A program made the translations under genes and the position numbers. From Cupriavidus necator (GTDB taxonomy: Bacteria; Pseudomonadota; Gammaproteobacteria; Burkholderiales; Burkholderiaceae), in contig NZ_CP066020.1 of the NCBI RefSeq assembly GCF_016127575.1, positions 180,001 to 212,000 of the forward strand: a DNA stretch of 32,000 nt. Direction: 5' to 3'. Shown here piece by piece: positions 3,121-29,755 of this stretch (the stretch's first letter is position 1; each line of letters starts with the position of its first letter). The notes below the pieces were generated by a model, which made no database searches, was not told where the DNA came from, and was given only the letters and a program-made list of their open reading frames with translations.

Positions 3121-3314
3121 AGAGTTGCAACCGGCTCTCCAACTTAAGGAGTCAGATTTCTGGCTGAGGCCGCTCCCGCGCAACGGGGATACAATATGTT
3201 GGGAGAATGAAGAATCCCATCACTACATATGGTATAAATGCGAGATGTGCGGACTTTGCTTGGGACTGACCCTGAGTGCAGATTTCACACGCGTGCCGCC
3301 TTAAGCGAGGAACA

Positions 3315-4127
3315 GTGTCTCTGCCGGACCTTCCCTTTCCATACGGTAAGCTTCAATTCCGACCAATCACCCGCGTGAGCGAAGCTTCGCGTGTTGTACT
3401 GGTGGGGCAAGTCTGTTCTCCTGTCTCACTCGCGCGCTTTAATGCGCACGTAAAGCTGCTTCCGGAGAAGGAATTCATTGCGGAGTCCGCGTGCGCGTGG
3501 CTGGCCAGACAGGTGGGACTGCCCGCGCCCGAAGCGATGTGGATCTGCGTATGCCGGAGCGCCTATCCAGCCGCGTGGCCGTATGGGGACGAGGACGTGC
3601 ACGTCTGTTTCGGCACCCGGTCCATAAGTAATGCGCTACCGCTTAAAGTTGAGTCTTCCACCGCCGGCTGGCTCTTCCAGCAAGATCGGGTCCTGCTCAT
3701 CGCAAAGATCGCGCTTTTCGATGAGTTAGTTGGCAACGACGACAGGCATCAAGGCAACCTCTTGCTAGGACCAACTGGCAACATTCTAGTGATTGACCAT
3801 GAGCGAGCCCTTGGTGGAACCGCTGCTGGGCTCTTCTCCAGTGACCTGATAGGTCCTAATCATCTTTTGGAGCTTGTCAGGGAGCTGCCTGCGAAGCAAA
3901 GGGCGGAGCTTAAAGCGCCACTTCTGCAGTTTGCGACCGCTTGCGCCGTTGCGGTTGATCGGCTACCGTTCGACCAGATCGCCGAAGCCAATCCGACGCT
4001 TAAAGAGGCGGCCAAACGATTCTTAGCAAAGCGCGCCGCGTCCCTGCACGACGTAGTGCTTCGGACTCTCGGCGTACCGGGTCTACCAGGTATTTCTGAA
4101 GTCCCCCTCCGATCCGCACCGCTATGA
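3315..4127 (+). CDS. HipA-like / PI3-4-kinase-like protein kinase-fold protein (about 270 aa)
   Basis: Catalytic-loop and Mg-loop pattern LVGNDDRHQGNLLLGPTGNILVIDHERAL (DRHxxN ... IDH), as in HipA/PI3K-type kinases. Upstream there is a candidate ATP lysine (HVKLL) and the ...ESACAWLARQVGLPAPE pattern seen in HipA-like proteins. Preferred start is GTG 3315, with GAGGAA 4 nt upstream; the track start ATG 3276 is the alternative. Confidence 0.65.
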   Translation: MSLPDLPFPYGKLQFRPITRVSEASRVVLVGQVCSPVSLARFNAHVKLLPEKEFIAESACAWLARQVGLPAPEAMWICVCRSAYPAAWPYGDEDVHVCFGTRSISNALPLKVESSTAGWLFQQDRVLLIAKIALFDELVGNDDRHQGNLLLGPTGNILVIDHERALGGTAAGLFSSDLIGPNHLLELVRELPAKQRAELKAPLLQFATACAVAVDRLPFDQIAEANPTLKEAAKRFLAKRAASLHDVVLRTLGVPGLPGISEVPLRSAPL

Positions 4128-5011
4128 ACCACCTTGTGTTGCACTTCGAACTGAATACACCTGCATCAGGCGTGGTCAGCGGCCAGGCTCGGCTCGCCAA
4201 TCTTGTTTTCGAGGCTTCCGGTGAGGCGTTGGCCATCGCGGTGCTCGGCCAATACTCTGATTGCACCCCATTCGCGCGAGTGGTGACGCCGAAAATTCTT
4301 AAGTGCCTGCCCCAGGAACTAGGTCATGCATGTCATACCTTCGGAACCCTACTGGTTGCTGACTACCTATCTTGGTCCAACTCGGGTAAAGAGTTCGCCG
4401 ACTGGCGCGCTCCGCTAGGTGGTATCCGTTTGGGAGAGCCTTTTGACATTGATGCTGAAGACGAAGAGGGAGTGGTCGTCAGAGCTCTTGATCGCTGCTC
4501 TTTGTATAGAGGACGCGTCGACTTGGCATCGAGAGCCGAGGAAACTGACCCTAGGCCTATACATGAAGCGCGCTTCGCCAAATCGGTGAAGGATGAGGTC
4601 TTGTCCGTGGCGCCCACTCTTGCACAGGGATTCAACAGAAGCTTCAGCCTAACTGGGACGACATCCGGCTTCTCCATAGACTATGTCGGCCACGCTTACG
4701 CTACTTGCTACGCTGCCATTAATCCGAAGGCTAAATCCATGGTAAGAAACAAGACGGCAGCGGCTGCTCTCTGGCGGCTTGCGCGCGCACGTGACGCTTT
4801 TGGATTTGCTACGCCGGAATCCATTGAGTTGACGGCTTGGATACCGGCGCCTGGGCAACCCATTTACTCAGACAGCGAGTATGCGGAAGTCAGCGATATT
4901 CTCTATGAACTGAGAGAACAGGCTAAGCGAGAGGATCTTCAAGTCTTTTCCGCTTACGATGCAAAGCGTGCTTGTAGCCGATTGCTTGCAGAGGAAGCCT
5001 TGACACATTAA
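4124..5011 (+). CDS. Hypothetical 295-aa protein, translationally coupled partner of the kinase-like gene
   Basis: ATG 4124 overlaps the kinase stop (ATGA, 4124-4127). Clean 888-nt ORF with a non-repetitive, mixed-composition translation. No motif recognised. Confidence 0.6.
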   Translation: MNHLVLHFELNTPASGVVSGQARLANLVFEASGEALAIAVLGQYSDCTPFARVVTPKILKCLPQELGHACHTFGTLLVADYLSWSNSGKEFADWRAPLGGIRLGEPFDIDAEDEEGVVVRALDRCSLYRGRVDLASRAEETDPRPIHEARFAKSVKDEVLSVAPTLAQGFNRSFSLTGTTSGFSIDYVGHAYATCYAAINPKAKSMVRNKTAAAALWRLARARDAFGFATPESIELTAWIPAPGQPIYSDSEYAEVSDILYELREQAKREDLQVFSAYDAKRACSRLLAEEALTH

Positions 5012-5396: not shown

Positions 5397-5864
5397 CTAT
5401 GAGGTCGTCAACTTGGTACGCCAGAAGTCCAGAACACGATGAGCCAATTCCACAACTTCAATCTTTCCGCTTAGGGTCAGGCCGTTGTCCTCAACAAGCA
5501 GCACGTAGACCTCCTGCTCGAAGTACCCTGGCTCGACGTATCCGTCCTCCGCATAGCTCTCGTCCACAACATCCTCAATAAGGTCGTGGCGTGCATTGGT
5601 TAATTCAAAATGTTTTAGGCCATCTGCAATGTGGGCGCAGATTTTAAGTACAGGGTTTCCTGACCGCTCACTGACCAACCCTGCCCAGTCGGCGATATGG
5701 TGAGCTGTGACAAAGAAGTTGAAAGCAATCCAAGCGTCCTGTGGATTGGCCTCTAGTTTCGCGAGGTCATTTTCTGCCTTGAGCAAAAGATCACGAGCAC
5801 TCCGAAGTGCCAAGAAACCTGTCCGAGAAGGGGTGTAGTGAGCGATGACGTTTGGCTTGACCAT
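5397..5864 (-). CDS. Hypothetical protein (about 155 aa, MVKPNVIAHYTPSRTGF...)
   Basis: Minus-strand ORF. ATG 5864 is preceded by AGGAAA 4-5 nt upstream; the track start 5921 is a TTG. Composition is helical N-terminally (LLLKAENDLAKLEANPQDAWIAFNFFVTAHHIADW) with an acidic C-terminal half. No known motif recognised. Confidence 0.55.
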   Translation of the reverse strand: MVKPNVIAHYTPSRTGFLALRSARDLLLKAENDLAKLEANPQDAWIAFNFFVTAHHIADWAGLVSERSGNPVLKICAHIADGLKHFELTNARHDLIEDVVDESYAEDGYVEPGYFEQEVYVLLVEDNGLTLSGKIEVVELAHRVLDFWRTKLTTS

Positions 5865-6403
5865 TCGTTTTCCTATTATGGTGTGCGAGTCCTTTGTGGG
5901 GTAGTCGTACTTTTTGAGCAAAATCTGGCACTAGCCAACCGGAGAGCCGACTGCAGCAAGGCTTTGTGGCTACACTCACTTTGTAACGGCAGGCGTTGTG
6001 GCAAGCCCTTGATCCACATTGATTTTTGGAGCCAACCGCCAGATTTCGCACCAAAAGTACGATCACCCCCCAACGAGCTGCGCGCCTCTTTCTTTTGTCC
6101 ATCCGCAGTTCGTGATCTCGAGCGCTTTTTCCTCAATCCGCAGTGGGGCTCCCCCGTCAATGAGAATATCGGCGGCGGCACACTAACCTATCGCGCTGTG
6201 CAAGACCCTCGCGCACCGGAGCGGACATTCTGGCGCTTCACTATCTACGGTATCGTCATGGGACATGCGCCTGGGCGACCGGGCGTGCGGGCGGATGCGA
6301 TCTATGGCGTCTCAAATCCTCCGCGAGAATGAGAGTGCTGGCGCCGGGGCAGGTGCAAGCCAATCGCGGCCAAAATTCAGCCGACTAGCCGATCAGGGGC
6401 GCA

Positions 6404-6889
6404 ATGGAAACAATCGACGGTATCGATTTGAGCGGCTTCACGCCTGCGGTCACCATCAAGAGTCTCCACAACACCCGTTGCACCCACGTACCCACCGCAG
6501 CGGGCGTCTATGTCGTTGTCCGCACAGAATCTACCGCCCCGAAGTTTCTCTCAGAGAGCCGGGCTGGATGGTTCAAGGGGCAGCATCCCAGCTATCCGGA
6601 ACACATTGTTCGAGATAATTGGGTAGAAGGCGCCACGGTGATCTACGTCGGGAAGGCCTGCGGGCGCAACGGTCTTCGCCAGCGAGTGCGCCAACTGGTG
6701 GAGTTCGCCTACGGCAAAGCGATTGGGCATCGCGGTGGTCGACTGCTTTGGCACCTCGCGGAGTGGGAGGATTTGCAAATGCACTGGATGGAGTGCCCAA
6801 GCTTGGCAGCAGATGGCCTCGAAACCGAGTTGATCGGACAGTTCCGACAGATGTATGGCGATCGCCCGTTTGCGAACATGACGAAGTGA
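6404..6889 (+). CDS. GIY-YIG nuclease-superfamily protein (161 aa)
   Basis: Motif order typical of GIY-YIG domains: AAGVYVVV (GIY), VIYVGKA (YIG), LRQRVRQL (conserved Arg helix), then GLETELIGQF (catalytic Glu region) and ...PFAN. Confidence 0.7.
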   Translation: METIDGIDLSGFTPAVTIKSLHNTRCTHVPTAAGVYVVVRTESTAPKFLSESRAGWFKGQHPSYPEHIVRDNWVEGATVIYVGKACGRNGLRQRVRQLVEFAYGKAIGHRGGRLLWHLAEWEDLQMHWMECPSLAADGLETELIGQFRQMYGDRPFANMTK

Positions 6890-7021
6890 TAGTCAGACAT
6901 CCGCTACGGTTCCGTGTGCCTTCTAATTAGGAACTGTTGGCGGCGCTATGCTGTTGAAATGGCACAAGGCGACCTGGATTGATACCGCGAACGGCGTGAT
7001 CTCAAAGTCACGGTAGAGCCA

Positions 7022-7043
7022 GCCGCGGATCGATCAGCGCGGC
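7022..7043. repeat. GC-clamped GATCGATC-centred imperfect palindrome (site 1 of 3)
   Basis: GCCGCGGATCGATCAGCGCGGC. It shares the 14-mer GCCGCGGATCGATC with site 2 at 8195-8208. Function unknown. Confidence 0.6.
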
Positions 7044-7105
7044 GGCGAAAGGCGCAGCTGCGCTTCGTCGTAGGCCTTATGCGCCTCCGGCCAGGATAGA
7101 GGGTT

Positions 7106-7155
7106 GGCCGGGATTCCCAAAATATCTGAAGCTTCAGATATTTCGAATCCCGGCC
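7106..7155. repeat. About 50-bp near-perfect palindrome with an AT-rich core, at the 5' truncation point of the kfrA-like gene
   Basis: GGCCGGGATTC-CCA-AAATATCTGAAG|CTTCAGATATTT-C-GAATCCCGGCC. The 24-bp core (7120-7143) is a perfect palindrome centred on AAGCTT. The outer 11-bp arms (7106-7116 / 7145-7155) are also perfectly complementary. Confidence 0.85.
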
Positions 7156-7926
7156 GGCCCTCGCGGTCGCGCGGGAAGAGGTCGCGGCCATCTCGGCGCA
7201 GTTGGCCGAGGCGCGCCAGTCGCACGGCGCCGTGCAGGCGGACCTGGCCGCGGAGCGGCAGGCGCACGCGGCGACGCAGGCCCGGCTCGAAGCGGGCCGC
7301 ACGGAACTGGAGGCGGGCCGACGTCAGCTGGAGACGTTGCGCACCCAATTCTCGACGGAGTTGGAGCCCGCGAGCAGGTGACCCTCGCGCAGGAACGGGC
7401 CGAGGCCAGCGAGCGGCGGAGCTTGCGCGAGCTGGACGCCGAGCGCACCGCCCGCCAGCAGAGCGAGCGCGCGGCCGAAGCGTTGCGCGGCGAACTGGCG
7501 GCGGTGCGCAGCGAGGCCCGCGACGTGGCCGTGGCGCAGGCCGAAATCCGCGCGCGGCTCGAAGCCCAGGCCGCGGCGCTAGCCGATCGGCTCGCCACCG
7601 CCGAGCAGGCGCAGCGCAAAGCGGCGCACGACCTGGACGCGCTGCAGGCGGAGCTGGGCGCGGCGCAGCGCCGGGCCGAACGGGCCGAGGCCGAAGCGGC
7701 GCTGGCGCGCCAGCTGCTGGCAGAATTGCGGGTGGCGCCAGCCGGGCGGGGGGAAGGTGGTGGCGGGCGGCGGCGCAAGGCCGGCGACCCGGCGCCGACC
7801 GAGCAGGCGGCGCCAGGCGAAAAACAGAACGAACAGCAGGACGACAAGCAGGGCGCGCCAGCCGCAGCCTTGAATCCGGAAGACGGCAGCGACAGCAGTG
7901 ACGACAGCAATGACAGCAAAAACTGA
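7130..7926 (+). pseudogene. KfrA-like alanine-rich coiled-coil gene, 5'-truncated and frameshifted
   Basis: Frame 2 (7130-7381) reads ...REEVAAISAQLAEARQSHGAVQADLAAERQAHAATQARLEAGRTELEAGRRQLETLRTQFSTELEPASR* with no start codon. The same heptad-like A/E/R/L/Q text continues in frame 1 from 7378 (TLAQERAEASERRSLRELDAERTARQQ...) to TGA 7924-7926. It ends in an acidic, Ser/Asp-rich tail. No N-terminal DNA-binding domain lies upstream. The KfrA assignment rests on composition and on context with the adjacent H-NS-like gene. Confidence 0.55.
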
Positions 7927-8173
7927 GCGGGCGGCGGCGATCCGCTGGATCCGGGCGGAGATGGCCGACTACGGGCTGACCATGGAGGAGCTGGCAGCGG
8001 CGGGGTGCTTCGATCCGCCGCCTCCTCCGCCACCGCCGCCACCCGCACCAGCGCCGGTGGTCTGCTACCGCAACGCCGCGGGGCAGAGTTGGGACGGGCA
8101 GGGCGACATGCCCGACTGGCTCAGGCGGGCGGTCAATGCGGGGCAGGCCGTGGAGTTTTTCCGGGTCGGGTAG
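7910..8173 (+). CDS. H-NS-family nucleoid-associated / xenogeneic-silencer-like protein (87 aa)
   Basis: N-terminal oligomerisation-type helix ERAAAIRWIRAEMADYGLTMEELAAAGCF. A poly-Pro linker (P10APAP) follows. The C-terminal DNA-binding motif is YRNAAGQSWDGQGDMPDWLRRAVNAGQAVEFF (YR..G..W.G.G..P.W pattern of H-NS-like proteins). ATG 7910 is preferred over GTG 7898. The start overlaps the end of the kfrA-like frame. Confidence 0.8.
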   Translation: MTAKTERAAAIRWIRAEMADYGLTMEELAAAGCFDPPPPPPPPPPAPAPVVCYRNAAGQSWDGQGDMPDWLRRAVNAGQAVEFFRVG

Positions 8174-8193
8174 CGCCGCCGCTATCTCGGCTC

Positions 8194-8215
8194 GGCCGCG
8201 GATCGATCTGCGGCC
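8194..8215. repeat. GC-clamped GATCGATC-centred imperfect palindrome (site 2 of 3)
   Basis: GGCCGCGGATCGATCTGCGGCC, 21 nt downstream of the hns-like stop. Confidence 0.6.
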
Positions 8216-8266
8216 GATGCCCCTTGTGATAGCGGATTCCCCGTATCTTGGCACGCCCCCTACAAC

Positions 8267-8282
8267 CCGCGATCGATCGCGG
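8267..8282. repeat. Perfect 16-bp palindrome (site 3 of 3)
   Basis: CCGCGATCGATCGCGG is its own reverse complement. Confidence 0.6.
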
Positions 8283-8399
8283 CTGTCGGGCTATTGGCGG
8301 CCTACCGTGCCGACCCTCAGCCGACAACACTGGAACGCGTGCTTCACGTGGCCGTCCAGCACGATACGGGCATGGCCGGGTGCTACGGGCCGGGGCGAC

Positions 8400-8407
8400 T
8401 GCGCAGC
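8400..8407. repeat. Left copy of the 8-bp target-site duplication of the IS66 element
   Basis: TGCGCAGC directly abuts IRL. The identical octamer is at 10869-10876, abutting IRR. Confidence 0.9.
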
Positions 8408-8429
8408 GTAAGCGAGTCGCCAGCACCGT
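8408..8429 (+). repeat. IS66 left inverted repeat
   Basis: GTAAGCGAGTCGCCAGCACCGT. The reverse complement of 10847-10868 is GTAAGCGGATCGCCAGCACCGT. Confidence 0.9.
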
Positions 8430-8477
8430 CTGTACCGTTCAGTAGAGTGGCGCCAAAGTAGTTCCCACCAAATAGTG

Positions 8478-8888
8478 ATGGGAACTACTTTGTCACAGTC
8501 ACAGGAAGAACCAGTCGCCGGCAGTCGCAAAGGCCGGCCGAACCACAGCGAGGAATTCAAGCGGCGGTTGGCAGCCGCTGCGTGTGAGCCGGGTGTCTCG
8601 GTATCGAAATTGGCGCGCGAGCACGGCATCAACGCGAACATGCTGTTCACCTGGCGCCGACGCTATCGAATGGAGCAGCGCCAGGAAGCCGCGGTGTTGT
8701 TGCCGGTGACCGTTGAACACCCAAGCTCGCCACCCGGTCCGATGCCAATGAGTCCGGCCGCTGCGGTTTGCGAGCCGACGCCGCCGCACGGCGCCATTGA
8801 GATCCGTTTGGGCCGAGCGGTGATTCGCATTGAAGGGGCAGTCGACGCGACCACGTTGCGTACCGTACTGGACCGTTTGACGCCATGA
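8478..8888 (+). CDS. tnpA: IS66-family accessory protein TnpA (orf1)
   Basis: Small HTH-type protein (...[44 protein letters not shown]) as the first ORF of the element. ATG 8478 (GTG 8475 in the track). The stop overlaps the tnpB start. Confidence 0.85.
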
Positions 8889-9262: not shown

Positions 9263-10816
9263 ATGCCAATCGACCCCAGCGATCTCCCCGACGACATTGA
9301 GGCCCTGAAGGCCTTGGTGTTGGCACAGCGGGAATCGATCGCACTCATGGAACGGGCCTTGGCGGTCCGCTCCATGGAGATCGAGCAGCTAAATCTGCAG
9401 ATCTCAAAGCTGAGGCGGATGCAGTTTGGCCAGAAGTCCGAGAAGCTGGATCGACAGATTGAACAGCTCGAGACCCGACTGGAAGATCTGCTGGCCGAGG
9501 AAGGTGCGGCCGAAACCGAAGCCGATCCGCAGGCTACCCCTCCTGTCCGGAAGAAAGCGGTACGCAAGCCGTTGCCGGAGCACCTGGAGCGGGAGGAGCG
9601 CATTCTCGAGCCCGAGACCGAAGCCTGTCCAGAGTGCGGCGGTAAGCTCAAGCCGCTGGGCGAGGACATCTCGGAGCAACTCGATATTATCAGCAGTTCA
9701 TTCAGGGTGATTCGGCAAGTGCGGCGCAAGAAGGCCTGCGCCTGTTGTGATTGCATCGTGCAGGCTGCAGCGCCAAGCCGGCCAATTGAGCGTGGCATTG
9801 CCACGGCGGGGCTGCACGCTCACATACTGGTTGCCAAATATGCTGATCATCAACCGCTGTACCGTCAAGCCGCGATCTATGCCCGGCAGGGCGTGGAGCT
9901 GGACCGCACGACCATGGCTCGCGGTGTCGGCGCTTGCGGTGCGCTGGTACGCCCCCTAGTCGAGGCTTTGCACCGATACGTGATGATGCCCGGCAAGGTG
10001 CATGCGGACGACACACCGCTGCCGGTACTTGCGCCAGGTAAGGGACAGACCAAGACGGGAAGACTATGGGCTTACGTGCGGGACGATCGCGCATCGGGTT
10101 CAGATGCTGCACCTGCAGTCTGGTTCGCCTACACACCAAATCGCCAGGGCCAACATCCCCAAGCGCATCTGGCCGGCTTCCGCGGCATCCTGCAGGCAGA
10201 CGCGTATGCGGGCTTCAACGCTGTTTTTACCGATGGCAGTGTGCGCGAAGCAGCTTGTATGGCCCACGCGCGCCGTAAGGTGCACGATCTGCATGTCCGC
10301 AAGGCAACGCCGACCACCACGGAGGCGTTACGCCGGATCGGCGAGCTCTATGCCATCGAAGCGGAAATCCGGGGTAAGCCACCTGCCGTGCGTCAACAGG
10401 TGCGGCAGCAAAGATCCCGGCCCCTACTGGACAGCCTCGAAGTGTGGTTGCGAGAGCGGCTATTGACGCTCTCAACGCAGTCGGAAACGACCAAAGCCAT
10501 CAACTACATGCTGAACCAGTGGCAAGCGCTAATCTACTACTGTGATGATGGTCTGGCAGAGATAGACAACAACATCGCGGAGAATGCGCTGCGCGGTGTC
10601 GCGTTGGGTCGGAAGAATTTTTTATTCGCCGGCGCTGACAGTGGCGGCGAGCGCGCGGCCGCAATGTACTCGCTCATCGGGTCCTGCAAACTCAACGGCA
10701 TCGATCCCGAGGCCTATCTGCGTCACGTCTTGGCCCGCATCGCCGATCATCCCGTCAATCGGATCGACGGACTTCTGCCGTGGAACGTCGCCGCTCAACT
10801 GGCGTTGCAAGCCTAA
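9263..10816 (+). CDS. tnpC: IS66-family DDE transposase TnpC (orf3)
   Basis: N-terminal leucine-zipper-like region and zinc-finger CPECGGKL...CACCDC. Conserved IS66 transposase blocks: [68 protein letters not shown], and a C-terminal LLPWN. ATG 9263 is preferred; the track start 9236 is a TTG. Confidence 0.92.
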
Positions 10817-10846
10817 AGCAGCACCATTCCTGTCTCGTCGTCAACC

Positions 10847-10868
10847 ACGGTGCTGGCGATCCGCTTAC
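10847..10868 (-). repeat. IS66 right inverted repeat
   Basis: ACGGTGCTGGCGATCCGCTTAC on the plus strand. It pairs with IRL with two adjacent mismatches (AG vs GA). Confidence 0.9.
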
Positions 10869-10876
10869 TGCGCAGC
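10869..10876. repeat. Right copy of the 8-bp target-site duplication
   Basis: TGCGCAGC, identical to 8400-8407. Confidence 0.9.
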
Positions 10877-10893
10877 GATCCCTGCCACCGGCA

Positions 10894-12099
10894 ATGCTAC
10901 GGACGCTGATGCGCCTGGGCCTGACCTCGACCACCTACGCCTTGCCAAGCCGCGATCTAGTGGATTGGGAGTGCGTCGAGGACTATCGCGCCCATCGTGA
11001 GGCGCAAGAAAACGCCCGAAAAGACGCGGAACGTGACAGGCTGCGGGCAGCGGTCACGGCGGAACTGCGATGGCTGTCGGGCGAGGGGGACGAGCCTGGC
11101 TGGCCGGAGCTGCCGGACCCGAGATCCCCGAAGGTGCGTGCCGGGATCCCCTTGGGCGTGCCGCGACGACAGCGTGCAAAGCCACCCGCGCCACGCGAGT
11201 ACGCGCTGGACTCGAGCGCGGCGGCGCATTGGCTGTCGCTCGCGAAAGACCTTTGGTATCGGGACGCGCCCGAGCGGTTGCGCGGCCTGGTGCTTCACTG
11301 TTGGGCGTGGACGGCAAGCGCGAACGGCGTCGGATGCAAAAAAGATGAAGAGCCTGGGGAGCGCGCGCATCAATGGAACGAAGCGTATTTCGCCGCAGCG
11401 ACCGCCGCGGCCGCCACGCTGGGTGATGCCGGCCTCAGCGAGATGGTCCTCCAGCGCGTCGCCCAGTTGCCGCAAGATCGCTTCCTCGACGCCACCACCG
11501 CGGTGCTGCATGAGCTCGACAGACTCTGGATGAACAACGGGCTCGTGTCGGGTCCCTTAGTGTTATTGGTATGGGAGACCCTGGCGTCGCGCATCAGGGA
11601 ATTCTGGGCGTGGAAGCGACTCACGTCTGAGTGCTCGACCAGCGCGGAAATCCATCTCACAGGCGCACTCGCTGCGCTGTTTATGGGGGAGTACGAGATC
11701 GGGAAGGGACCTCGCTGCTATGTCCGTCCGCCCGGGGCTGAGGGAGCGGACGCCCTGTTGCCGATGCTCACGCGCCTGGCCGTGGAGGCCGCGCCGTCCA
11801 CCTTCGTCGCCCTCGCGATACTTGGCCTGCTTGAGGTGCAGCCGCAAGTGCATCGACTGACGTTCCTTGCGGGAGTGGTCAGTGCCTGGTGGCGGGCGCA
11901 GGGTGCAAACACGGAATTCTGGAACGACTACGGCATAGGGCCCCGGGTATGCGCCTGGGTCGAAAAGGCCATCCTAAGCGCTCCGGTACCCCAGGAGGTT
12001 CTGGATAGCGCGGAACTGACGTCCGTCGTGGATACGCTGGTCCAAACCGGCACGCCACTGGCGCGGATCCTCGACGAGAAGCTTGCGCGACCGCGCTGA
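10894..12099 (+). CDS. Hypothetical protein (about 401 aa)
   Basis: Long open frame with a plausible, non-repetitive translation (MLRTLMRLGLTSTTYALPSRDLVDWECVEDYRAHREAQENARKDAERDRL...). The track ORF starts at 10780 inside the IS and crosses IRR, which cannot be native. The first ATG outside the IS and its duplication is 10894. No motif recognised. Confidence 0.5.
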   Translation: MLRTLMRLGLTSTTYALPSRDLVDWECVEDYRAHREAQENARKDAERDRLRAAVTAELRWLSGEGDEPGWPELPDPRSPKVRAGIPLGVPRRQRAKPPAPREYALDSSAAAHWLSLAKDLWYRDAPERLRGLVLHCWAWTASANGVGCKKDEEPGERAHQWNEAYFAAATAAAATLGDAGLSEMVLQRVAQLPQDRFLDATTAVLHELDRLWMNNGLVSGPLVLLVWETLASRIREFWAWKRLTSECSTSAEIHLTGALAALFMGEYEIGKGPRCYVRPPGAEGADALLPMLTRLAVEAAPSTFVALAILGLLEVQPQVHRLTFLAGVVSAWWRAQGANTEFWNDYGIGPRVCAWVEKAILSAPVPQEVLDSAELTSVVDTLVQTGTPLARILDEKLARPR

Positions 12100-12271: not shown

Positions 12272-12454
12272 CGAGCGCCTGGCGTTATTCCTGCGGGGTA
12301 GAAAGGGTGTTAATGGCGAAATCGGCGAGCAGGCAAAGGCAATGCAGTATGTGGATGCTGCGTAATCGTGGCATTGTTGGAATGGAAGAGGCTGCGTAGC
12401 TGGTCGGTGACTTTGGAGGATAATGGCCTTTTTCGCTCCTAGTTTTTGACTAGC

Positions 12455-13327
12455 ATGGACGCGCCTAAAGACGAGCCAGTACTGCCGCAGCCCATAGGCA
12501 CAAGCCCCGACCAGTGGAAAGCTCTAGGAAGTTCCATTGTTGAGATCGGGGTTGCCATTGGATCCGCCTTCAGGCAGATGCAGGAGTGGTGGGTAGCCAA
12601 TGCTCCGGTTATAGGAGCTGCAATTCAGTTCGCGATTAAGGAGCTTCCTCCTGCGTACCGTCGAGCAATGGTTGAATTGGCTAAGCACGGTTGGTACATT
12701 GATATGCAGCGCATGGGGCTGGGGCATCCCCCTCGGCTAGCCGAAGCTCTTCGCAAGAACGAGGGTGCCGAGGAGGCGAAGGAAGAGCTAAGACTGCATT
12801 TTTCAGTGCATTTGGATGAGATTGAAACTGAGGTGTGCGAGCTGCTCCCACACCGCTCGCATATCCTGGCGCAGGCGTTCAATGCCCACAGGGCCGGGCA
12901 GTACGCGCTTTCAATACCAGTGTTCCTGTCGCAAGCCGATGGAATCTGTTTTGAAAAGGTGAATGCCTACTACTTCGTTTCCGACAAGACTCCGGAGGGT
13001 CGGAAGATTGGTCGCCCGGAGACTGCTATCCATGCCGAATCCCTCGACCATGATTTTTGGACGCGTATTGTGCTGGCTCCGCTAGGCGAATTCGGTGAGC
13101 TCAATGTAAGTGGCAAGAAGCGGCCTCCAGACTTCCAAGGGCTAAACCGCCACACAGTGATGCATGGTCAGTCGCTCGACTATGGAACTGAGATCAACAG
13201 CCTCAAGGCGATCTCACTTCTGAACTATGTGTCGCACGTCTTGGCCCGCAAGAGCTTTCCGCAGCGTTTGCAGGAAGGTGACAGCCCGCCAGTCGCCGGC
13301 CGCCTCGTGCGAAATCCACGTCGCTAA
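12455..13327 (+). CDS. Hypothetical protein (about 290 aa) with a HEPN-like Rx4H motif
   Basis: Clean ORF in a lower-GC patch. The C-terminal block GLNRHTVMHGQSLDYGTEINSLKAISLLNYV contains R-HTVM-H (Rx4H) followed by G, as in RNxxxHG-type HEPN motifs. The upstream helix HRSHILAQAFNAHRAGQYALSIPVFLSQADGI is also notable. ATG 12455 is preferred over TTG 12446. The HEPN call is tentative. Confidence 0.55.
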   Translation: MDAPKDEPVLPQPIGTSPDQWKALGSSIVEIGVAIGSAFRQMQEWWVANAPVIGAAIQFAIKELPPAYRRAMVELAKHGWYIDMQRMGLGHPPRLAEALRKNEGAEEAKEELRLHFSVHLDEIETEVCELLPHRSHILAQAFNAHRAGQYALSIPVFLSQADGICFEKVNAYYFVSDKTPEGRKIGRPETAIHAESLDHDFWTRIVLAPLGEFGELNVSGKKRPPDFQGLNRHTVMHGQSLDYGTEINSLKAISLLNYVSHVLARKSFPQRLQEGDSPPVAGRLVRNPRR

Positions 13328-13958: not shown

Positions 13959-16229
13959 TCAGTTTCCCAAAAAAGCTGCGAATCCTGCGCGCAGGTAGAT
14001 GCTGCTTCGCGCGCCGTCGTCCGCGATGCCGCGCGCCAAGCCTCGCATCTGAGCGAGTAGCAGCTCCCTCAACGCCCATAGATCGGCTGAACCAGGAGCG
14101 GCATTGGCAACGTCTTCGATGAGTTGTCGCACGTAATTCTTGGTTTCATCATCTACTTCGGAACTGGTGAGGCACCTTAGCAGACAGATCACAAACAGAG
14201 TCTCATTTTGAAAGTGTCGAACTACCCTTGAGCCTAACACGAGCGACTTGGGGAACCCTTCAGGATTTATGTACGCGGGCGTCCTTGTTCTTGCCTGTTG
14301 CACTGCGCTCGCACATGCGAAGAGCAACTGGATAGGCGTGGCGCCGGCGACCAGCAATGGCGAGTCATTGCCAAAGACGGGCGCCGACCGCCCCTTTTCC
14401 AGGCATACCCACTCAGAGTGGACCAGGCCTGTCTCCGTTTGCCCCAAAAGTGCGCCTCGCTCATCCGTCCCACCTGCCTCCTCGTCGTCAAACTCCAAGG
14501 GGAGCTGAGAAATGCTGAAGGACTCTCGGCACCACGGACAAGCGCGCTCGCCGGAATCCGGAAGTGCAAACCGATATAGCCATTCAACACGAAACGCCCT
14601 TTCATGATGGTCGGAGGCGATGCCTCGAATTGCACTGTCCATCTCACTTTCATTCGCGGGGAGGACGAGCAGTGGCATGAGTGTGATGAGCCTGGGCGCC
14701 ACGAAGAGGTCGTTCGATCCCCGTATGGCTTTGACATATGCCTGCAATCTTTCGGAGCCGTAGGCGACGTCATCGATTATCAATATCGATTCAGACTGCG
14801 AGATTGCTTCCGCGAGAGTGCGATCTAGGTCGACCGCAAGATTGATGCGCAATGATTCATGCGACTCTACGCGAATCTGTAGTTCGCGCTTGAGGAATCG
14901 GGCTATTGCAGCCGCGCCTCGATGAACAGGGGTGATGATGAGGTCGGGAACTGGGTCCATACCCCGAATCTTGCCGAGGAGCTGTTCGCAAAATGCTGGG
15001 ATTTCCAGCAGTTTCTCCACGTTGATGCTAAATGCACGATGCTTCCCGCTTCCCCAGCTCGTATCATTGACGTGCGTGCGCAAAACGCCATCGAAATGGC
15101 CGTAAGCTTCGATGAAGGTGCGCTGCGCTCTGAAGAGGAGGGGGGGCAATGCCCGGGTGTCGACATTTCTCGCCGCGAGGAAGTATCGAGCGCGATCAAT
15201 GCGAAATACGGGACTGTTGCCTTGCTGACATGCCACGCAATGTTCAGATGACGTCGTGTGCCAGTAGTCATCGATTTGTAGTGCGCAAAATGCATGCGAC
15301 GCTGGGTCTGGCGTGGTTGCGTAGAGCACTGACGTACCAACGGGCACATCAAGTGACCCCGCGACTCTCCGCAATGTCTTAGTGAGTGTGCCAGTGGACG
15401 ACACGCTGACAATGAAGTGAATCCGGGAGTTTACCGCAATGCGTGGCTGCAGCCATTGACGAAGATCTGCCGATCTGTCTGGGTTCTCAGGATATGCGCG
15501 TACGCAATCATATGTCATCGCCAATTTGGGGAAGACATGACTCAAGCGAAGCGCAAGAGTAAGCGTACTGGGATTGTCGACCAGCACAACTAAGCCACAA
15601 GTCTGATTCGGATCAGCACCGATGGCGTGTTGTTCACAGATGTCTCGGGCGACCCAATATACGAGTTTATCCAGATCGTCAGTACTTGCTAAGCACTCGG
15701 CAAGTCGGAAGAAATGAGATGTGTGCGCGCCTGATGGCAACTCAAAATGGCCTCCGTCCACCGCCAGTACCGCACGATTTCGGTGAACATTTACGATGTC
15801 AGAGAGTTCCTGGCTGCGGATATCAGTAAGTTCCTCCGCCATCATCACAGCTAGGGCGGGACCACCGTCCCCGTCGGCGGTCACCATCAAGGGTGTCTTG
15901 AGCATGTCTTCAGGAGACGCATCCGAGACGATCTCGTTCAGCTGAGGCAAGCGGGGCAGGATCGCCAAGCGTCCACCTTTCAAGCGCTTCGCAACGTCTG
16001 CCAAAGCGTATCTTAGACGACCGGACGCTGTCTCTACCGTCTCGGCAATAACCGCTTGATTGAAAATCGCAGTGGCTGTCAACAAACTTCGGAATAGGGG
16101 CAAGGCAACACGAGCGACGTATGCTCCAGCCTCACTTGCATAATCATGCGTAGTGGAAGAGAGAGCAGCGTCGATATCGGCGATGGACTCTATGTCGCCG
16201 CGAATAAACGCCCAGCGGGTATCTGTCAT
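13959..16229 (-). CDS. Tandem phosphoribosyltransferase (PRTase)-like protein, each unit followed by a CxxC (about 756 aa)
   Basis: Unit 1 has the PyrE-type hood GGHFELPSGAHTSHFFRL and a degenerate PRPP loop RIHFIVSVSSTGTLTKTL, with no acidic pair; HCVAC follows. Unit 2 has a canonical PRPP loop SILIIDDVAYGSERL (nt 14751-14786), then ACPWC. The C-terminal about 170 aa are unassigned. Start at ATG 16229 (MTDTRWAF), 7 nt after the upstream gene's stop, with AAGG upstream. The track ORF start 16286 would overlap the upstream gene by 50 nt. Confidence 0.7.
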   Translation of the reverse strand: MTDTRWAFIRGDIESIADIDAALSSTTHDYASEAGAYVARVALPLFRSLLTATAIFNQAVIAETVETASGRLRYALADVAKRLKGGRLAILPRLPQLNEIVSDASPEDMLKTPLMVTADGDGGPALAVMMAEELTDIRSQELSDIVNVHRNRAVLAVDGGHFELPSGAHTSHFFRLAECLASTDDLDKLVYWVARDICEQHAIGADPNQTCGLVVLVDNPSTLTLALRLSHVFPKLAMTYDCVRAYPENPDRSADLRQWLQPRIAVNSRIHFIVSVSSTGTLTKTLRRVAGSLDVPVGTSVLYATTPDPASHAFCALQIDDYWHTTSSEHCVACQQGNSPVFRIDRARYFLAARNVDTRALPPLLFRAQRTFIEAYGHFDGVLRTHVNDTSWGSGKHRAFSINVEKLLEIPAFCEQLLGKIRGMDPVPDLIITPVHRGAAAIARFLKRELQIRVESHESLRINLAVDLDRTLAEAISQSESILIIDDVAYGSERLQAYVKAIRGSNDLFVAPRLITLMPLLVLPANESEMDSAIRGIASDHHERAFRVEWLYRFALPDSGERACPWCRESFSISQLPLEFDDEEAGGTDERGALLGQTETGLVHSEWVCLEKGRSAPVFGNDSPLLVAGATPIQLLFACASAVQQARTRTPAYINPEGFPKSLVLGSRVVRHFQNETLFVICLLRCLTSSEVDDETKNYVRQLIEDVANAAPGSADLWALRELLLAQMRGLARGIADDGARSSIYLRAGFAAFLGN

Positions 16230-16236
16230 TGCCGCC

Positions 16237-17376
16237 TTAGAGAGCCAGTACGCGCTGATCGACGTCTGTGAAGAGCACAGGCACAAACAGGTCTACGCAT
16301 GTTCCTGCCGCGAACTGCTGAGGAAGCCTGGAGAGAACCGCGCCATCCATTGTCGGCATCTTGTCTTCTCCGAGGGAAAAGTCTTTGATAAGCCGATGGC
16401 CAGCGGAAGTAACTTGCAGGCGTGTCCGAAGACGAAATGCCGCGTCCACGACCTTAAGCAAGCCCATCCCTTTTTCGACGGAACTGACGCTCTTGCGGGT
16501 CTGCTTCAGCTGAAACGCCCTGCGCAACCGATCTTCGGGGTGTTCCTCAACGGACTCAGCAGGGAGGGTGTTCTGAATGCCTTCTCCCATGTCCATAACG
16601 GATATGCAAGCCAGCAGTCGGTCTTTGTCCGTCTTTTCCATTTCCGCAACGCGCAGCAGAAATTCGCGCATCTCCGCAGAAATATCTCGCCTGTCTAGCT
16701 GGGCGGCGTTGAAGACGATCTTGGTAATCGAGATGCCTCGTGTGCTATGCCTTGCTACGCGAGCGTCGTGTGGCCGTCCGTGCTGTAGCGTGTTCGCAAA
16801 GGTCTCATAGATGAAATCCGTCAGTGTTGGAAGAGTGCTTTGGCTAGCAATGCGCCCCAAGCCCATCCCTGACAAAATTCTGTGCAGACCAGAAGCGAAC
16901 TGCGAGGGCAATGGTATCTCGGTGGCGTTGACATCCGAGTGGGTGTCAAATACGCGAGGAATCGAGCGTTTGGGATCAAACGCCAGGATGCCAACGCGGT
17001 CTCCGAGTCCAATTACGCCACGCTTTGCATCGTAGCAGCGGCCAGCAAACCGTCGAAGCTCCGTCGCACCACTCTCAGGGCCGTCACGGAACGCCGCGGT
17101 AGCACATGCCCGTAAGAGCGCATAGCCGAACATCGTGGACAGAAGCGTTCCACTGAAATCGTTGTTGTCCCGAGGGAAAGCGAATTCGCAATGGATGTGT
17201 AACGAAGAGCATCTCTTGATGGCAGCACTAAGGTACGCCAGGGCAAGCCCCTCTGCGCCAGCTTCGAACTCCGCGGATTTGCCAATAACAAGGCTAAGGG
17301 AGGCTTCGCCCGCGTCTGGCCATTGCAAAACATCTTCTGCGGCAATGCGATCAAGCAGCGTGACTTGGGTAGGCAT
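16237..17376 (-). CDS. GHKL-superfamily (HATPase_c-like) ATP-binding protein (379 aa)
   Basis: Bergerat-fold motifs occur in order in the C-terminal half: N-box ETFANTLQHG (ExxxN), G1 ISVMDMGEGIQ (DxGxG), G2 EKGMGLLKV (GxGL) and a late GTCVDLFVP. The N-terminal about 190 aa are unassigned. I recognised no DHp His-box or receiver domain. Confidence 0.7.
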   Translation of the reverse strand: MPTQVTLLDRIAAEDVLQWPDAGEASLSLVIGKSAEFEAGAEGLALAYLSAAIKRCSSLHIHCEFAFPRDNNDFSGTLLSTMFGYALLRACATAAFRDGPESGATELRRFAGRCYDAKRGVIGLGDRVGILAFDPKRSIPRVFDTHSDVNATEIPLPSQFASGLHRILSGMGLGRIASQSTLPTLTDFIYETFANTLQHGRPHDARVARHSTRGISITKIVFNAAQLDRRDISAEMREFLLRVAEMEKTDKDRLLACISVMDMGEGIQNTLPAESVEEHPEDRLRRAFQLKQTRKSVSSVEKGMGLLKVVDAAFRLRTRLQVTSAGHRLIKDFSLGEDKMPTMDGAVLSRLPQQFAAGTCVDLFVPVLFTDVDQRVLAL

Positions 17377-18083: not shown

Positions 18084-19538
18084 ATGCAGGGTTTACCGGT
18101 CTCGCCCTCGCTCATTCCTCTCGACACCCTGAGGGAACAGATCGCACGGGCCGTTGCCACGGCCAAGGCCTACGACGTTCCCGATGTCTGTGTCGGCCTG
18201 AGGATTCAGCAGTCGGTGGACGAGGCCGATGCGCAGGAGGCTTTCGGCAGCAAACGGCTGTACGTCCGACGCAGGATCATCTCCTGGAGCGAGGCGGACC
18301 TTTTAGACTTGGCAACGCGGGTGCTACGCGATTACCCCTCGGAGGAACTTGCGGACATCGTGAGCGAGATGACCGTCCATGCAGAACAGCGCGTAAGTGC
18401 ATTGGTCCGGCGTGACGTTCTCAAGGCTCTCAATCCCTTGGCCTCCCTGTTCGGCGACCTACCGCTGATTGATGGACTCAGAGTGGTGTTCGGTGCCTCG
18501 GTCATCCAGGACGATCCGACAGGGCTGACTGGTCTGCTTGGCCTTACCAGCCTGCATGGGCAGATTGTCCAGCACTGCTTACGCAACGATGACTGGTCCC
18601 ATGAAGAGCTGCTGATTCAATGCGGCGCGATGACGTGCAGCCAGACCCGCTTCTTTTCGTTGCTGAACAAGCTTTTGCATCCCATGTCACGCCGTGACGG
18701 CGAGCAGGCGACACTAGCCACCGCGATCGACACGGCACTCAGGCGGGACGGCTTCGCGGTTAGGAAGACCAGCGTGGAGTCGGGGTACGCCGTCTATGGC
18801 GTGGTCCGCATGCAGGCAGGTGTCGTCGGAGCAATGAAGAACCTGATCTTCGCATCAATCGGTGAGAAGCCAGAATTGGTCTTTCGCGACGCAGTCAATA
18901 ACGACGTCGAGATCATCAAGCATGCCGACAAAGTACTGGTCTTTGACCGCCCTTTACCCAATTCCGGACTGCTGCTCTGGAAGGACTTGCGCGACTGGTA
19001 TGCCGAACTTCAGGGTATTAGCGACGTGGCCAGTGCGAAAGAGAATCTTTTCCGGCGGCTGCGCCAGGCTGTGCTCGGTGCCCGTTCGGCGGGTGAGTTT
19101 GCGGTATTTCAAGGCTACTACGAGCGCTACGGTGGTCCGCTTGGAGAGCGGTTGCCCGCGCTTGTCCCGCAGGTCTATCTGCACTACGACCCCTACACCC
19201 GTCGCCAACGCGGCGACGAACAGTTTTTAGCGCGCCAGCGTATGGATTTTCTGCTGATGCTGGATCACGGCGTGCGCATCGTGATCGAGATCGATGGCCG
19301 CCACCACTACGCAGTACCGGATCCTCTAGCGCCGGATCGGTTCATCGCAAACTCCCAGCGCTATGCCGAGATGGTGGCGGAAGATCGTCGGCTGCGGCTT
19401 ATGGGGTACGAGGTCTACCGCTTCGGCGGTTACGAATTCTTGGACGTTGACCTGGAACAGCGCAGGGTTGGTCCACACGCTCAAAAATGCGTCGCGGACT
19501 TCTTTGACAGGCTTTTGGCCCGGCATTGTGTTAGGTGA
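18084..19538 (+). CDS. Two-part protein: N-terminal region resembling AbiJ-N-terminal-type domains, C-terminal DUF559/Vsr-like PD-(D/E)xK endonuclease domain (about 484 aa)
   Basis: The C-terminus MDFLLMLDHGVRIVIEIDGRHHY...AEDRRLRLMGYEVYRFGGYEF matches the D...(V/I)E(I/V)DG..H...D..R...L...G..V.RF pattern of DUF559-type endonucleases. The N-terminal region has RVSALVRRDVLKAL, GQIVQHCLRNDDWSHEELL, FFSLLNKLLHPMSRRD and LRRDGFAVRKTSVESGYAVYGVV. From memory these resemble AbiJ-NTD families; this is unverified. Start at ATG 18084, with GGAG 5 nt upstream. The track ORF start 17910 adds 58 low-quality residues. Confidence 0.7.
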   Translation: MQGLPVSPSLIPLDTLREQIARAVATAKAYDVPDVCVGLRIQQSVDEADAQEAFGSKRLYVRRRIISWSEADLLDLATRVLRDYPSEELADIVSEMTVHAEQRVSALVRRDVLKALNPLASLFGDLPLIDGLRVVFGASVIQDDPTGLTGLLGLTSLHGQIVQHCLRNDDWSHEELLIQCGAMTCSQTRFFSLLNKLLHPMSRRDGEQATLATAIDTALRRDGFAVRKTSVESGYAVYGVVRMQAGVVGAMKNLIFASIGEKPELVFRDAVNNDVEIIKHADKVLVFDRPLPNSGLLLWKDLRDWYAELQGISDVASAKENLFRRLRQAVLGARSAGEFAVFQGYYERYGGPLGERLPALVPQVYLHYDPYTRRQRGDEQFLARQRMDFLLMLDHGVRIVIEIDGRHHYAVPDPLAPDRFIANSQRYAEMVAEDRRLRLMGYEVYRFGGYEFLDVDLEQRRVGPHAQKCVADFFDRLLARHCVR

Positions 19539-29753: not shown

Positions 29754-29755
29754 TG

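Follow-up and report, generated by a model that had tools for sequence, protein, structure and literature searches.

The DNA analysed here, called the window, is a 32,000-nucleotide stretch of Cupriavidus necator (contig NZ_CP066020.1, positions 180,001 to 212,000) that is identical to about 147.8–181.2 kb of NC_005241.1, the megaplasmid pHG1 of strain H16. It contains two adjacent genes, here named A and B, both of which are labelled hypothetical in RefSeq. Profile comparisons identify the pair as a divergent branch of the superfamily catalogued as the PADLOC candidate system PDC-M65, with A carrying a histidine kinase-type GHKL (Bergerat) ATP-binding domain and B carrying two phosphoribosyltransferase (PRTase)-like units. 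The PDC-M65 candidate and PRTase effectors were already known; what these comparisons add is a form of B that has an intact phosphoribosyl pyrophosphate (PRPP) site and is invisible to the current PADLOC model of B. The pair is laid out as follows.

16237–17376, minus strand: gene A, 379 amino acids (aa), WP_041688671, PDC-M65A-like ATP-binding protein.
16230–16236, minus strand: A–B spacer ggcggca, 7 nt, in the context TAA-ggcggca-ATG.
13959–16229, minus strand: gene B, 756 aa, WP_136227934, tandem PRTase-like protein, divergent relative of PDC-M65B.

Both open reading frames (ORFs) and the junction between them were confirmed, in agreement with the initial annotation, which had described two minus-strand genes with a 7-nt gap. 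Gene B starts at the ATG of MTDTRW; a longer, TTG-initiated ORF extending to 16286 was dropped, as neither RefSeq nor the N-termini of homologues support it. An AAGG/GGCGG Shine–Dalgarno-like sequence overlaps the stop codon of gene A, so translational coupling of A and B is likely. The A–B junctions of all homologous loci range from an overlap to a gap of 27 nt. Scanning for promoters and terminators at the pair gave nothing beyond shuffled controls. The GC content of the pair is 0.556, compared with 0.597 for the whole window and 0.648 for the IS66 stretch, confirming that the two genes lie in DNA of lower GC than the IS66 backbone.

The initial annotation had regarded the pair as an unnamed system. 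This was not upheld, since a PADLOC search places A in PDC-M65A and the relatives of B in PDC-M65B; according to the literature, PDC systems are unpublished PADLOC candidates, and the match to a named system is in that sense partial. The match of window A to PDC-M65A was weak but colinear (E 9.2e-6, 22.8 bits, residues 136–310 against profile positions 144–325 of 398), and the clade members P0031, P0036 and P0039 matched at 6e-8 to 1e-4. The A partners in distant clades matched PDC-M65A at 1e-19 to 8e-7 and were also matched by the window-clade A profile. For B, all 14 relatives tested (10 distant ones, that of Ralstonia and three metagenomic ones) matched PDC-M65B at 1e-6 to 5e-29, the 10 distant ones at 4e-6 to 5e-29. 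Ralstonia solanacearum megaplasmids carry an A–B pair that is 33% (A) and 28% (B) identical to the window pair (tblastn; B 1e-56), and the B protein of that pair matched PDC-M65B at 6.7e-15. When the window-clade B profile was aligned with the Pantoea PDC-M65B by hhalign, 486 columns were colinear with a probability of 93.6% and E 2e-7.

Bona fide PDC-M65 pairs were found on plasmids of four genera: Spirosoma (PADLOC scores of 4e-126 for A and 5e-261 for B), Pantoea (1.5e-47 and 1.5e-122), and Pseudomonas (P. aeruginosa) and Rhizobium, the last two identified through tblastn and gene order. The window pair shares with the candidate system two co-directional genes with a tiny gap, A of about 380–400 aa followed by B of about 720–770 aa, both proteins being homologous, as well as a location in defence islands. 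It differs in that window B escapes the PDC-M65B model and keeps the DD, RHH, P-x-H and CPWC motifs described below. Because window B is unmatched by that model, PADLOC would probably overlook the window pair.

Protein A consists of the following parts.

16852–17376, minus strand: N-terminal alpha/beta domain, residues 1–175, family-specific, with invariant FEAGAEG (17248–17268) and AFDPKR (16966–16983).
16279–16839, minus strand: Bergerat (histidine kinase-type GHKL) ATP-binding domain, residues 180–366, with N, G1, G2 and G3 boxes.
16777–16806, minus strand: N box ETFANTLQHG.
16576–16593, minus strand: G1 box DMGEGI.
16459–16470, minus strand: G2 box GMGL.
16297–16308, minus strand: G3 box GT.

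The assignment of A to the GHKL fold, which the initial annotation had made from the motifs, was substantiated by structure and by conservation. In a Foldseek search of the PDB with the AlphaFold2 (AF2) model of A (built with 20 homologues; pLDDT 84.5, pTM 0.87), the first 30 matches were all GHKL proteins (ParE/GyrB, Topo II, Grp94), with CheA, RsbW and MORC further down; the best E was 8.5e-4, with probabilities up to 0.95 and about 130–190 aligned columns. A fold search of BFVD again returned GHKL matches, which were weaker, and nothing closer such as rIIA. The four motifs are universal, the N box having the form E-x-x-x-N-x-x-x-H-G. Residues E191, N195, D262, G264, G266, G303, G305, G358 and T359 are invariant in the clade and kept in 10–12 of 12 distant homologues (those of Ralstonia, Pantoea and Spirosoma and of nine metagenomic loci). 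Essentially only the Bergerat motifs, R213 and D134 are common to window A and these 12 proteins, D134 being kept in all 12. Since the Bergerat motifs are nearly alone in being conserved among the distant A proteins, their pattern indicates that ATP binding by A is under selection across the whole superfamily.

By profile, A is best described as having a histidine kinase-type Bergerat domain, nearer to the catalytic and ATP-binding (CA) domains of histidine kinases than to GyrB or MutL. Hhalign of a profile of the Bergerat region gave E 5.8e-5 over 115 columns with P4 of Escherichia coli CheA and E 6.3e-5 with the CA domain of EnvZ, compared with about 5e-3 for GyrB and MutL, where only the G1 box was aligned. 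A thus resembles these CA domains in fold and in its N, G1, G2 and G3 boxes, and differs from histidine kinases in having no dimerization and histidine phosphotransfer (DHp/HisKA) domain or receiver partner, in its unique N-terminal domain, and in scoring below the Pfam HATPase_c threshold. Window A had no Pfam match, the HATPase_c gathering threshold not being reached; HATPase_c was seen in 3 of 10 A relatives at 14–15 bits, under the cut-off of 26.4 bits. The full-length A profile gave one spurious match only (E 1.5) against PDB sequences. The N-terminal domain had no match of its own in PDB, Pfam or BFVD; the unassigned N-terminus that had been reported is thus present, although its length is about 175 aa and not 190. 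Since A is closer to histidine kinase CA domains, a role as a kinase or switch is as plausible as the ATPase sensor proposed earlier.

Protein B is divided as follows.

15840–16229, minus strand: N-terminal domain, residues 1–130, variable across the superfamily.
15192–15839, minus strand: PRTase-like unit 1, residues 131–346.
15705–15749, minus strand: orotate PRTase-like hood of unit 1, HFELPSGAHTSHFFR.
15564–15590, minus strand: VVLVDNPST of unit 1.
15387–15416, minus strand: acid-less phosphate loop of unit 1, FIVSVSSTGT.
15228–15239, minus strand: CVAC of unit 1, C331/C334.
14496–15167, minus strand: PRTase unit 2, residues 355–578.
15030–15080, minus strand: H386 and (K/R)H(R/H) hairpin of unit 2.
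14913–14939, minus strand: pyrophosphate (PPi) loop of unit 2, IITPVHRGA.
14748–14786, minus strand: PRPP loop of unit 2, ILIIDDVAYGSER.
14523–14540, minus strand: CPWCRE of unit 2, C564/C567 and E569.
13962–14477, minus strand: C-terminal helical domain, residues 585–756, with conserved R591, Q644, R647, R685, E691 and E722.

With the B alignment, an exhaustive hidden Markov model (HMM) search retrieved 708 representative relatives at an E cut-off of 1e-3, of which 544 also passed a cut-off of 1e-10. The relatives are mostly 700–770 aa long and match the profile from about 110 to about 710; since the matches begin only at about 110, units 1 and 2 and the C-terminal domain are shared and the N-terminal domain is variable. 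Full-length members aligned from the 150 best-scoring matches (127 sequences) showed the following conservation.

Unit 1, P165, F173, R175 and W192: 100% of the 127.
Unit 1, D218 and G280: at least 94%.
Unit 2, H386: 100%.
Unit 2, H397: 98%.
Unit 2, D486 and D487: 98% (124 of 127).
Unit 2, G492 and R494: 94%.
Unit 2, C564, C567 and E569: 100% (127 of 127).
C-terminal domain, Q644, R647 and E722: at least 98%.

All motifs quoted in the initial annotation (ETFANTLQHG, DMGEGI and GMGL in A; the hood, FIVSVSSTGT, the PRPP loop, CVAC and CPWC in B) were present at the places given for them. They exceed what would be expected by chance, as the Bergerat residues alone are shared by the 12 distant A homologues, and DD and CPWC are kept in at least 98% of the 127 B sequences. 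In the clade alignments of 19–20 members the quoted motifs are invariant except for an SG-to-GS swap in the DD loop of the window protein itself. The N-terminal 130 and C-terminal 170 residues of B had no assignable relatives. On a Spirosoma plasmid, PDC-M65B (L016) is split into a 138-aa ORF (5588–6004) and a 637-aa ORF (6001–7914) with a 4-nt overlap. The two ORFs are parted exactly where the variable N-terminal domain meets unit 1, which points either to a separable N-terminal module or to a frameshift.

The PRTase fold of B, as proposed earlier, was supported by both structure and profile. With the AF2 model (pLDDT 81, pTM 0.56), Foldseek placed orotate PRTases (OPRTases) first among PDB entries (E 7e-5, probability 1.0), followed by adenine PRTase (APRT) and purine PRTases. 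The identity of B to orotate and adenine PRTases and to PRPP synthetase is about 10–16%. A unit 2 profile made from 22 sequences matched 41 PDB sequences at E up to 10, of which about 39 have the PRTase fold. The best match was to the C-terminal domain of PRPP synthetase (9.4e-5, 114 positions), with OPRT at 1.6e-3 and APRT at 3e-3, and PurR, PyrR and HGPRT were also found; the alignments span the PPi loop through the PRPP loop. Pfam Pribosyltran was matched below threshold by 12 of 19 clade members (best E 0.0031; best listed score 16.2 bits against a cut-off of 26.3 bits) and PRTase-CE (PF24390), a little-documented Pfam family, by 5 of the 19. In the ten members listed individually, all Pribosyltran and PRTase-CE matches lie within residues 402–517.

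Unit 2 shows the type I PRTase PRPP-loop pattern of four hydrophobic residues, two acidic residues and x-x-(T/S)-G-x-(T/R), the family consensus being hhhhDDVxx(T/S)GxR with DD in 124 of the 127 sequences; it therefore keeps the canonical acidic-pair loop, as had been noted. The window clade, the Ralstonia protein and the 127 aligned members all keep the unit 2 set of H386, RHH, P-x-H, DD (124 of 127) and CPWC, and B of the window branch is, on this residue pattern, probably still catalytic. B resembles orotate and adenine PRTases and PRPP synthetase in giving its top structural and unit 2 profile matches to them and in the OPRT-type hood of unit 1. It differs from these enzymes in its additional N- and C-terminal domains, the H/RHH and CPWC-E motifs and the acid-less unit 1, and in not being found in metabolic operons.

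In unit 1, the hood accounts for the sole NCBIfam match of window B, to TIGR01367 pyrE (residues 156–200, E 0.0024). All 127 sequences have S or G at position 275, and nowhere in the superfamily does unit 1 have an acidic pair. The initial annotation was thus right that unit 1 is without the acidic pair, which serves to bind Mg and ribose, but a decayed remnant is not what the conservation indicates, as the hood residues P165, F173 and R175 are the most universally conserved part of the superfamily. Hhalign of unit 1 with E. coli PyrE was not significant, and the full-length B profile found nothing among PDB sequences. The suggested internal duplication received a divided answer. With narrow clade alignments, unit 1 and unit 2 aligned at E 0.28, which is not significant; with diverse profiles E fell to 1.6e-4 (probability 51%), and the 131 aligned columns were in equivalent register, the two hoods being paired with each other, VDNPS with P-x-H-x-x-G and SVSSTG with DDVxxTG. 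An ancient duplication giving rise to units 1 and 2 is therefore plausible but only modestly supported.

The two CxxC pairs had been proposed to bind one zinc ion jointly. The first of them (C331/C334) is present in only 100 of the 127 sequences, and in a complete clade of 27 sequences CP(W/L/F)C is the sole CxxC. CPWC-E co-varies with the active-site residues of unit 2 and not with the first CxxC, which is present or absent in both of the forms of B that are distinguished below. As each CxxC is found without the other in parts of the family, one obligatory shared four-cysteine zinc site is unlikely.

The distribution of the genes was examined with word-indexed and exhaustive searches. The word-indexed search gave 20 clusters for A and 20 for B among 5.8 billion proteins, with at least 10 A homologues on the same contigs as B homologues. 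A further word-indexed protein search with the A alignment added no distant relatives, neither clade alignment retrieved a relative of the window clade when 185,579 GTDB representative genomes were scanned for patterns, and tblastn against phage genomes gave no match to the pair. The order A-then-B holds in all 10 loci read for six window-clade proteins and also in Ralstonia and on the Pantoea, Spirosoma, P. aeruginosa and Rhizobium plasmids. In the most distant B clade, for which metagenomes were scanned with a single-clade alignment, 14 loci were found; among the 11 with upstream sequence, 10 have an A protein of about 390–400 aa upstream that matches the window-clade A profile and/or PDC-M65A. 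Only A and B are common to the loci, and a third conserved gene was rejected.

The neighbours of the pair are frequently defence genes. One window-clade locus contains Qat, Gabija, a TIR protein and integrases, another contains CHAT/TPR and M78-HTH genes (L008), a third an integrase and AAA_21/QueC-like genes (L010), and a further one an Mrr-like gene. Elsewhere, Lamassu and recombinases lie beside the pair, QatABCD lies on P. aeruginosa plasmid pBJ86, and the Rhizobium plasmid carries TIR proteins, thyX, a dGTPase, a RecB-like nuclease and a ubiquitin-like system. Integrases or transposases are near the pair in several loci. The co-occurrence check thus had the outcome that the initial annotation anticipated for a defence system: the two genes are strictly syntenic, are not housekeeping genes and usually stand beside known defence genes. 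Judged by gene order and context, the pair is a self-contained, horizontally mobile two-gene module.

Two further observations concern the neighbours. On Rhizobium plasmid p3 (L036; 4468–5406, 5418–8827 and 9071–10414), thyX precedes PDC-M65A by 12 nt, and B is closely followed by a dGTP triphosphohydrolase gene, a neighbourhood that would fit a nucleotide-directed mechanism. A gene for a helix-turn-helix (HTH) and Peptidase_M78 protein of about 385 aa immediately precedes A in L008 (7274–8422), where it has the same orientation, and stands three genes upstream on the opposite strand in L010 (5472–6638); it is absent from pHG1 and not conserved elsewhere.

The explanation that we put first, and to which we give an even chance, is that the pair is a module of the PDC-M65 superfamily in which the ATP-dependent protein A gates a toxic B directed at PRPP or nucleotides. 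A and B would be made in a fixed ratio by translational coupling and would form a complex. A would keep B inactive, or activate it once infection is sensed, through ATP binding or hydrolysis or through phosphorylation of B. At unit 2, active B would use up PRPP or a related ribose-5-phosphate nucleotide. Since PRTases of type I are obligate dimers and B may be a fused pseudo-dimer of two type I PRTase-like domains, unit 1 could complete the unit 2 site across the pseudo-dimer interface, or it may bind a regulatory nucleotide. Nucleotide synthesis would then collapse, and phage replication and host growth would stop, as in abortive infection. A bolder version, which we hold to be unlikely, has a GHKL kinase-type A controlling a pseudo-heterodimeric PRTase by phosphorylation or ATP-driven clamping, with unit 1 sensing a nucleotide- or PRPP-pool signal, unit 2 destroying PRPP or making an unusual phosphoribosylated product, and the members without DD representing a second, non-catalytic mode.

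Precedents for such a toxin come from two systems. ShosT, the toxin of ShosTA, has a PRTase fold joined to a second, Rossmann-like domain, and the DD of its PRPP loop is essential (PMC11961720); its toxicity requires PRPP binding and is abolished by D331A/D332A in the PRPP loop (PMC11961720, PMC12961424). Weak ShosT matches were seen in 2 of 10 B relatives (E 0.007). The second domain of ShosT, unlike the PRTase duplicate of B, is a pyrophosphatase-like hydrolase, and its partner is a DprA-like DNA-binding antitoxin, whereas the partner in the window is an ATP-binding protein; the window locus has no DprA-like gene. In Retron-Eco11 (a type III-A3 retron), a PRTase-like effector is held inactive in a complex and causes abortive infection when triggered, which is associated with PRPP depletion (PMC12746101). 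There, control is exerted by a reverse transcriptase and its multicopy single-stranded DNA, and the effector has a single PRTase domain; the window locus has neither a reverse transcriptase nor the non-coding RNA. In the literature, no paper was found that joins a PRTase with a GHKL protein in one system, and no mention of PDC-M65 or PRTase-CE was found; in the DefensePredictor paper, PRTase and HATPase appear only in legends, for different systems.

Several results weigh against an ATP-gated, PRPP-directed toxin. The first group concerns window B itself: it has no match in Pfam or PADLOC, which includes Pribosyltran, PDC-M65B (E up to 1) and ShosT, the Foldseek matches are to the full B model and the output does not say which unit was aligned, and the unit 1 profile alone has no significant sequence match in the PDB. 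The DD loop of the window reads AYGSER, compared with AYSGxR in its clade relatives. The second group concerns the family. The members that match the PADLOC B model best, those of Spirosoma, Pantoea, P. aeruginosa and Rhizobium, are without the H386, RHH, P-x-H loop, DD and CPWC of unit 2, the DD being replaced by AG, GS or AA. These canonical PDC-M65B proteins keep the unit 1 hood, D218 and the Ser/Thr-rich loop, and also R647, R685 and E691. The universally conserved part of B is thus the acid-less unit 1, and given this DD-less form, the superfamily as a whole cannot work by canonical PRTase chemistry at unit 2. Finally, metabolic genes flank the pair in some loci, and no publication was found that reports any anti-phage activity of PDC-M65, which is a candidate only.

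Another possibility is that the roles are reversed, B being a sensor of PRPP or a nucleotide ligand and A the output kinase that phosphorylates a host or phage target or the C-terminal domain of B. We regard this arrangement as improbable. It would account for canonical PDC-M65B proteins that have no acidic pair in either unit and yet keep the unit 1 loop and hood, for the universal Bergerat motifs of A and for the greater nearness of A to kinase CA domains than to GHL ATPases; PRTase-fold PRPP binders are known, and PurR and PyrR are among the PDB matches of unit 2. Set against this, the strong conservation of DD, RHH and CPWC-E in the window branch argues for catalysis, A has no recognisable substrate-docking, DHp or effector domain, and B, which is larger than A and has several domains including a variable N-terminal one, looks like a typical fusion of sensor and effector.

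It is also conceivable, though quite improbable in our estimation, that the pair serves as a toxin–antitoxin, plasmid-addiction or inter-plasmid exclusion module and not as an anti-phage system. In the searched collections, plasmids or megaplasmids account for all isolate occurrences (pHG1, Ralstonia, Pantoea, Spirosoma, Rhizobium, Agrobacterium and P. aeruginosa pBJ86), and two genes with a tiny gap are typical of toxin–antitoxin pairs. The plasmid bias, however, arises because the database searched was one of plasmids; loci from metagenomes and draft genomes have chromosomal-looking flanks, and the neighbours are specifically anti-phage systems. The two roles are in any case not exclusive, as ShosTA is both a toxin–antitoxin and a defence system.

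There is a slim chance that B is a PRPP synthetase-like pyrophosphokinase or nucleotide-converting enzyme, which would drain ATP or make a toxic or signalling nucleotide. PRPP synthetase is built from a comparable pair of PRTase-like domains in tandem, the second of which alone carries the acidic loop. In the PDB, unit 2 is best matched by the domain at the C-terminus of a ribose-phosphate pyrophosphokinase, which contains the ribose-5-phosphate loop, at the E 9.4e-5 over 114 positions given above. OPRT and APRT, however, score only 1–2 orders of magnitude below this match, the hood of unit 1 is of the OPRT type, and the top 50 Foldseek matches of the full model contain single-domain OPRT, APRT and purine PRTases and no PRPP synthetase.

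A housekeeping nucleotide-salvage or ComF-like competence operon is effectively excluded by distribution and context: PRTase-like domains with nearby cysteine pairs superficially recall ComFC, and one nr record labels a homologue 'phosphoribosyltransferase', but the window clade is extremely patchy (20 clusters among the 5.8 billion proteins and none in the 185,579 GTDB representatives), its flanks are variable and its GC is below that of the surroundings, no salvage-family model was matched at threshold, and, where ComFC has an N-terminal four-cysteine zinc finger, one PRTase domain and ComFA, B has two units with C331/C334 and C564/C567 placed after them and no helicase/ComFA partner in its operon.

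Returning to the window, the pair lies in a defence island with the order GajB, HipA-like kinase, H-NS, IS66, two ORFs without matches, the A–B pair, AbiJ_NTD3 protein, Avs1abc and a second Gabija. The defence modules that had been recognised on either side were all verified: GajB, GajA with GajB, Avs1abc, the AbiJ_NTD3 protein and the HipA-like kinase. The window thus carries two separate Gabija systems. The individual features are listed below.

155–1744: GajB of Gabija no. 1, the GajA of which crosses the window edge.
3276–4127, plus strand: HipA_2-type kinase gene, Pfam E 7e-10, with a weak PADLOC PDC-M66A match (E 8e-7).
4124–5011, plus strand: 295-aa ORF without a match, overlapping the HipA_2-type kinase gene.
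10780–12099, plus strand: 439-aa ORF in the interval from IS66 to gene B, unmatched in Pfam and PADLOC.
12446–13327, plus strand: 293-aa ORF in the interval from IS66 to gene B, unmatched in Pfam and PADLOC.
18084–19538, plus strand: AbiJ_NTD3 protein gene, Pfam E 1e-45, divergent neighbour of gene A.
27852–31726: complete GajA/GajB pair, Gabija no. 2, on the right side of the window.

The AbiJ_NTD3 neighbour of gene A had no PADLOC match. On P. aeruginosa plasmid pBJ86, a homologue with 39% identity (L035, 13974–15368) immediately follows qatD, in an island that also contains a PDC-M65 pair. The HipA_2 kinase and the 295-aa ORF may represent a second divergent PADLOC candidate in the island that is currently not called. 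The 439-aa and 293-aa ORFs had no homologue in any other locus fetched. The region at 7001–8500, referred to in the initial annotation as 'kfrA', has a GC content of 0.71–0.73, an AT skew of +0.33 and long ORFs on both strands over the annotated H-NS gene.

That PRTase-fold toxins act in phage defence has been shown only recently, for ShosT and Retron-Eco11, and the regulators there are a DNA-binding antitoxin and a retron. If the favoured explanation of a PRPP- or nucleotide-directed toxin controlled by A is true, the pair would add a third control logic, that of an ATP-dependent kinase-like partner; no system described so far has a defence logic in which a GHKL kinase gates a nucleotide-metabolic toxin. 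The unusual architecture lends itself to direct tests. Mutations could be aimed at E191 and N195 of A, and at D486, D487, CPWC-E and the unit 1 hood residues P165, F173 and R175 of B, and C. necator H16 with pHG1 offers a tractable model host. For the family, PDC-M65 appears as the visible tip of a larger superfamily of at least 708 clusters at 50% identity, which is split into forms with an intact PRPP site and forms without it, and current models miss the intact-site form that is found in the window.

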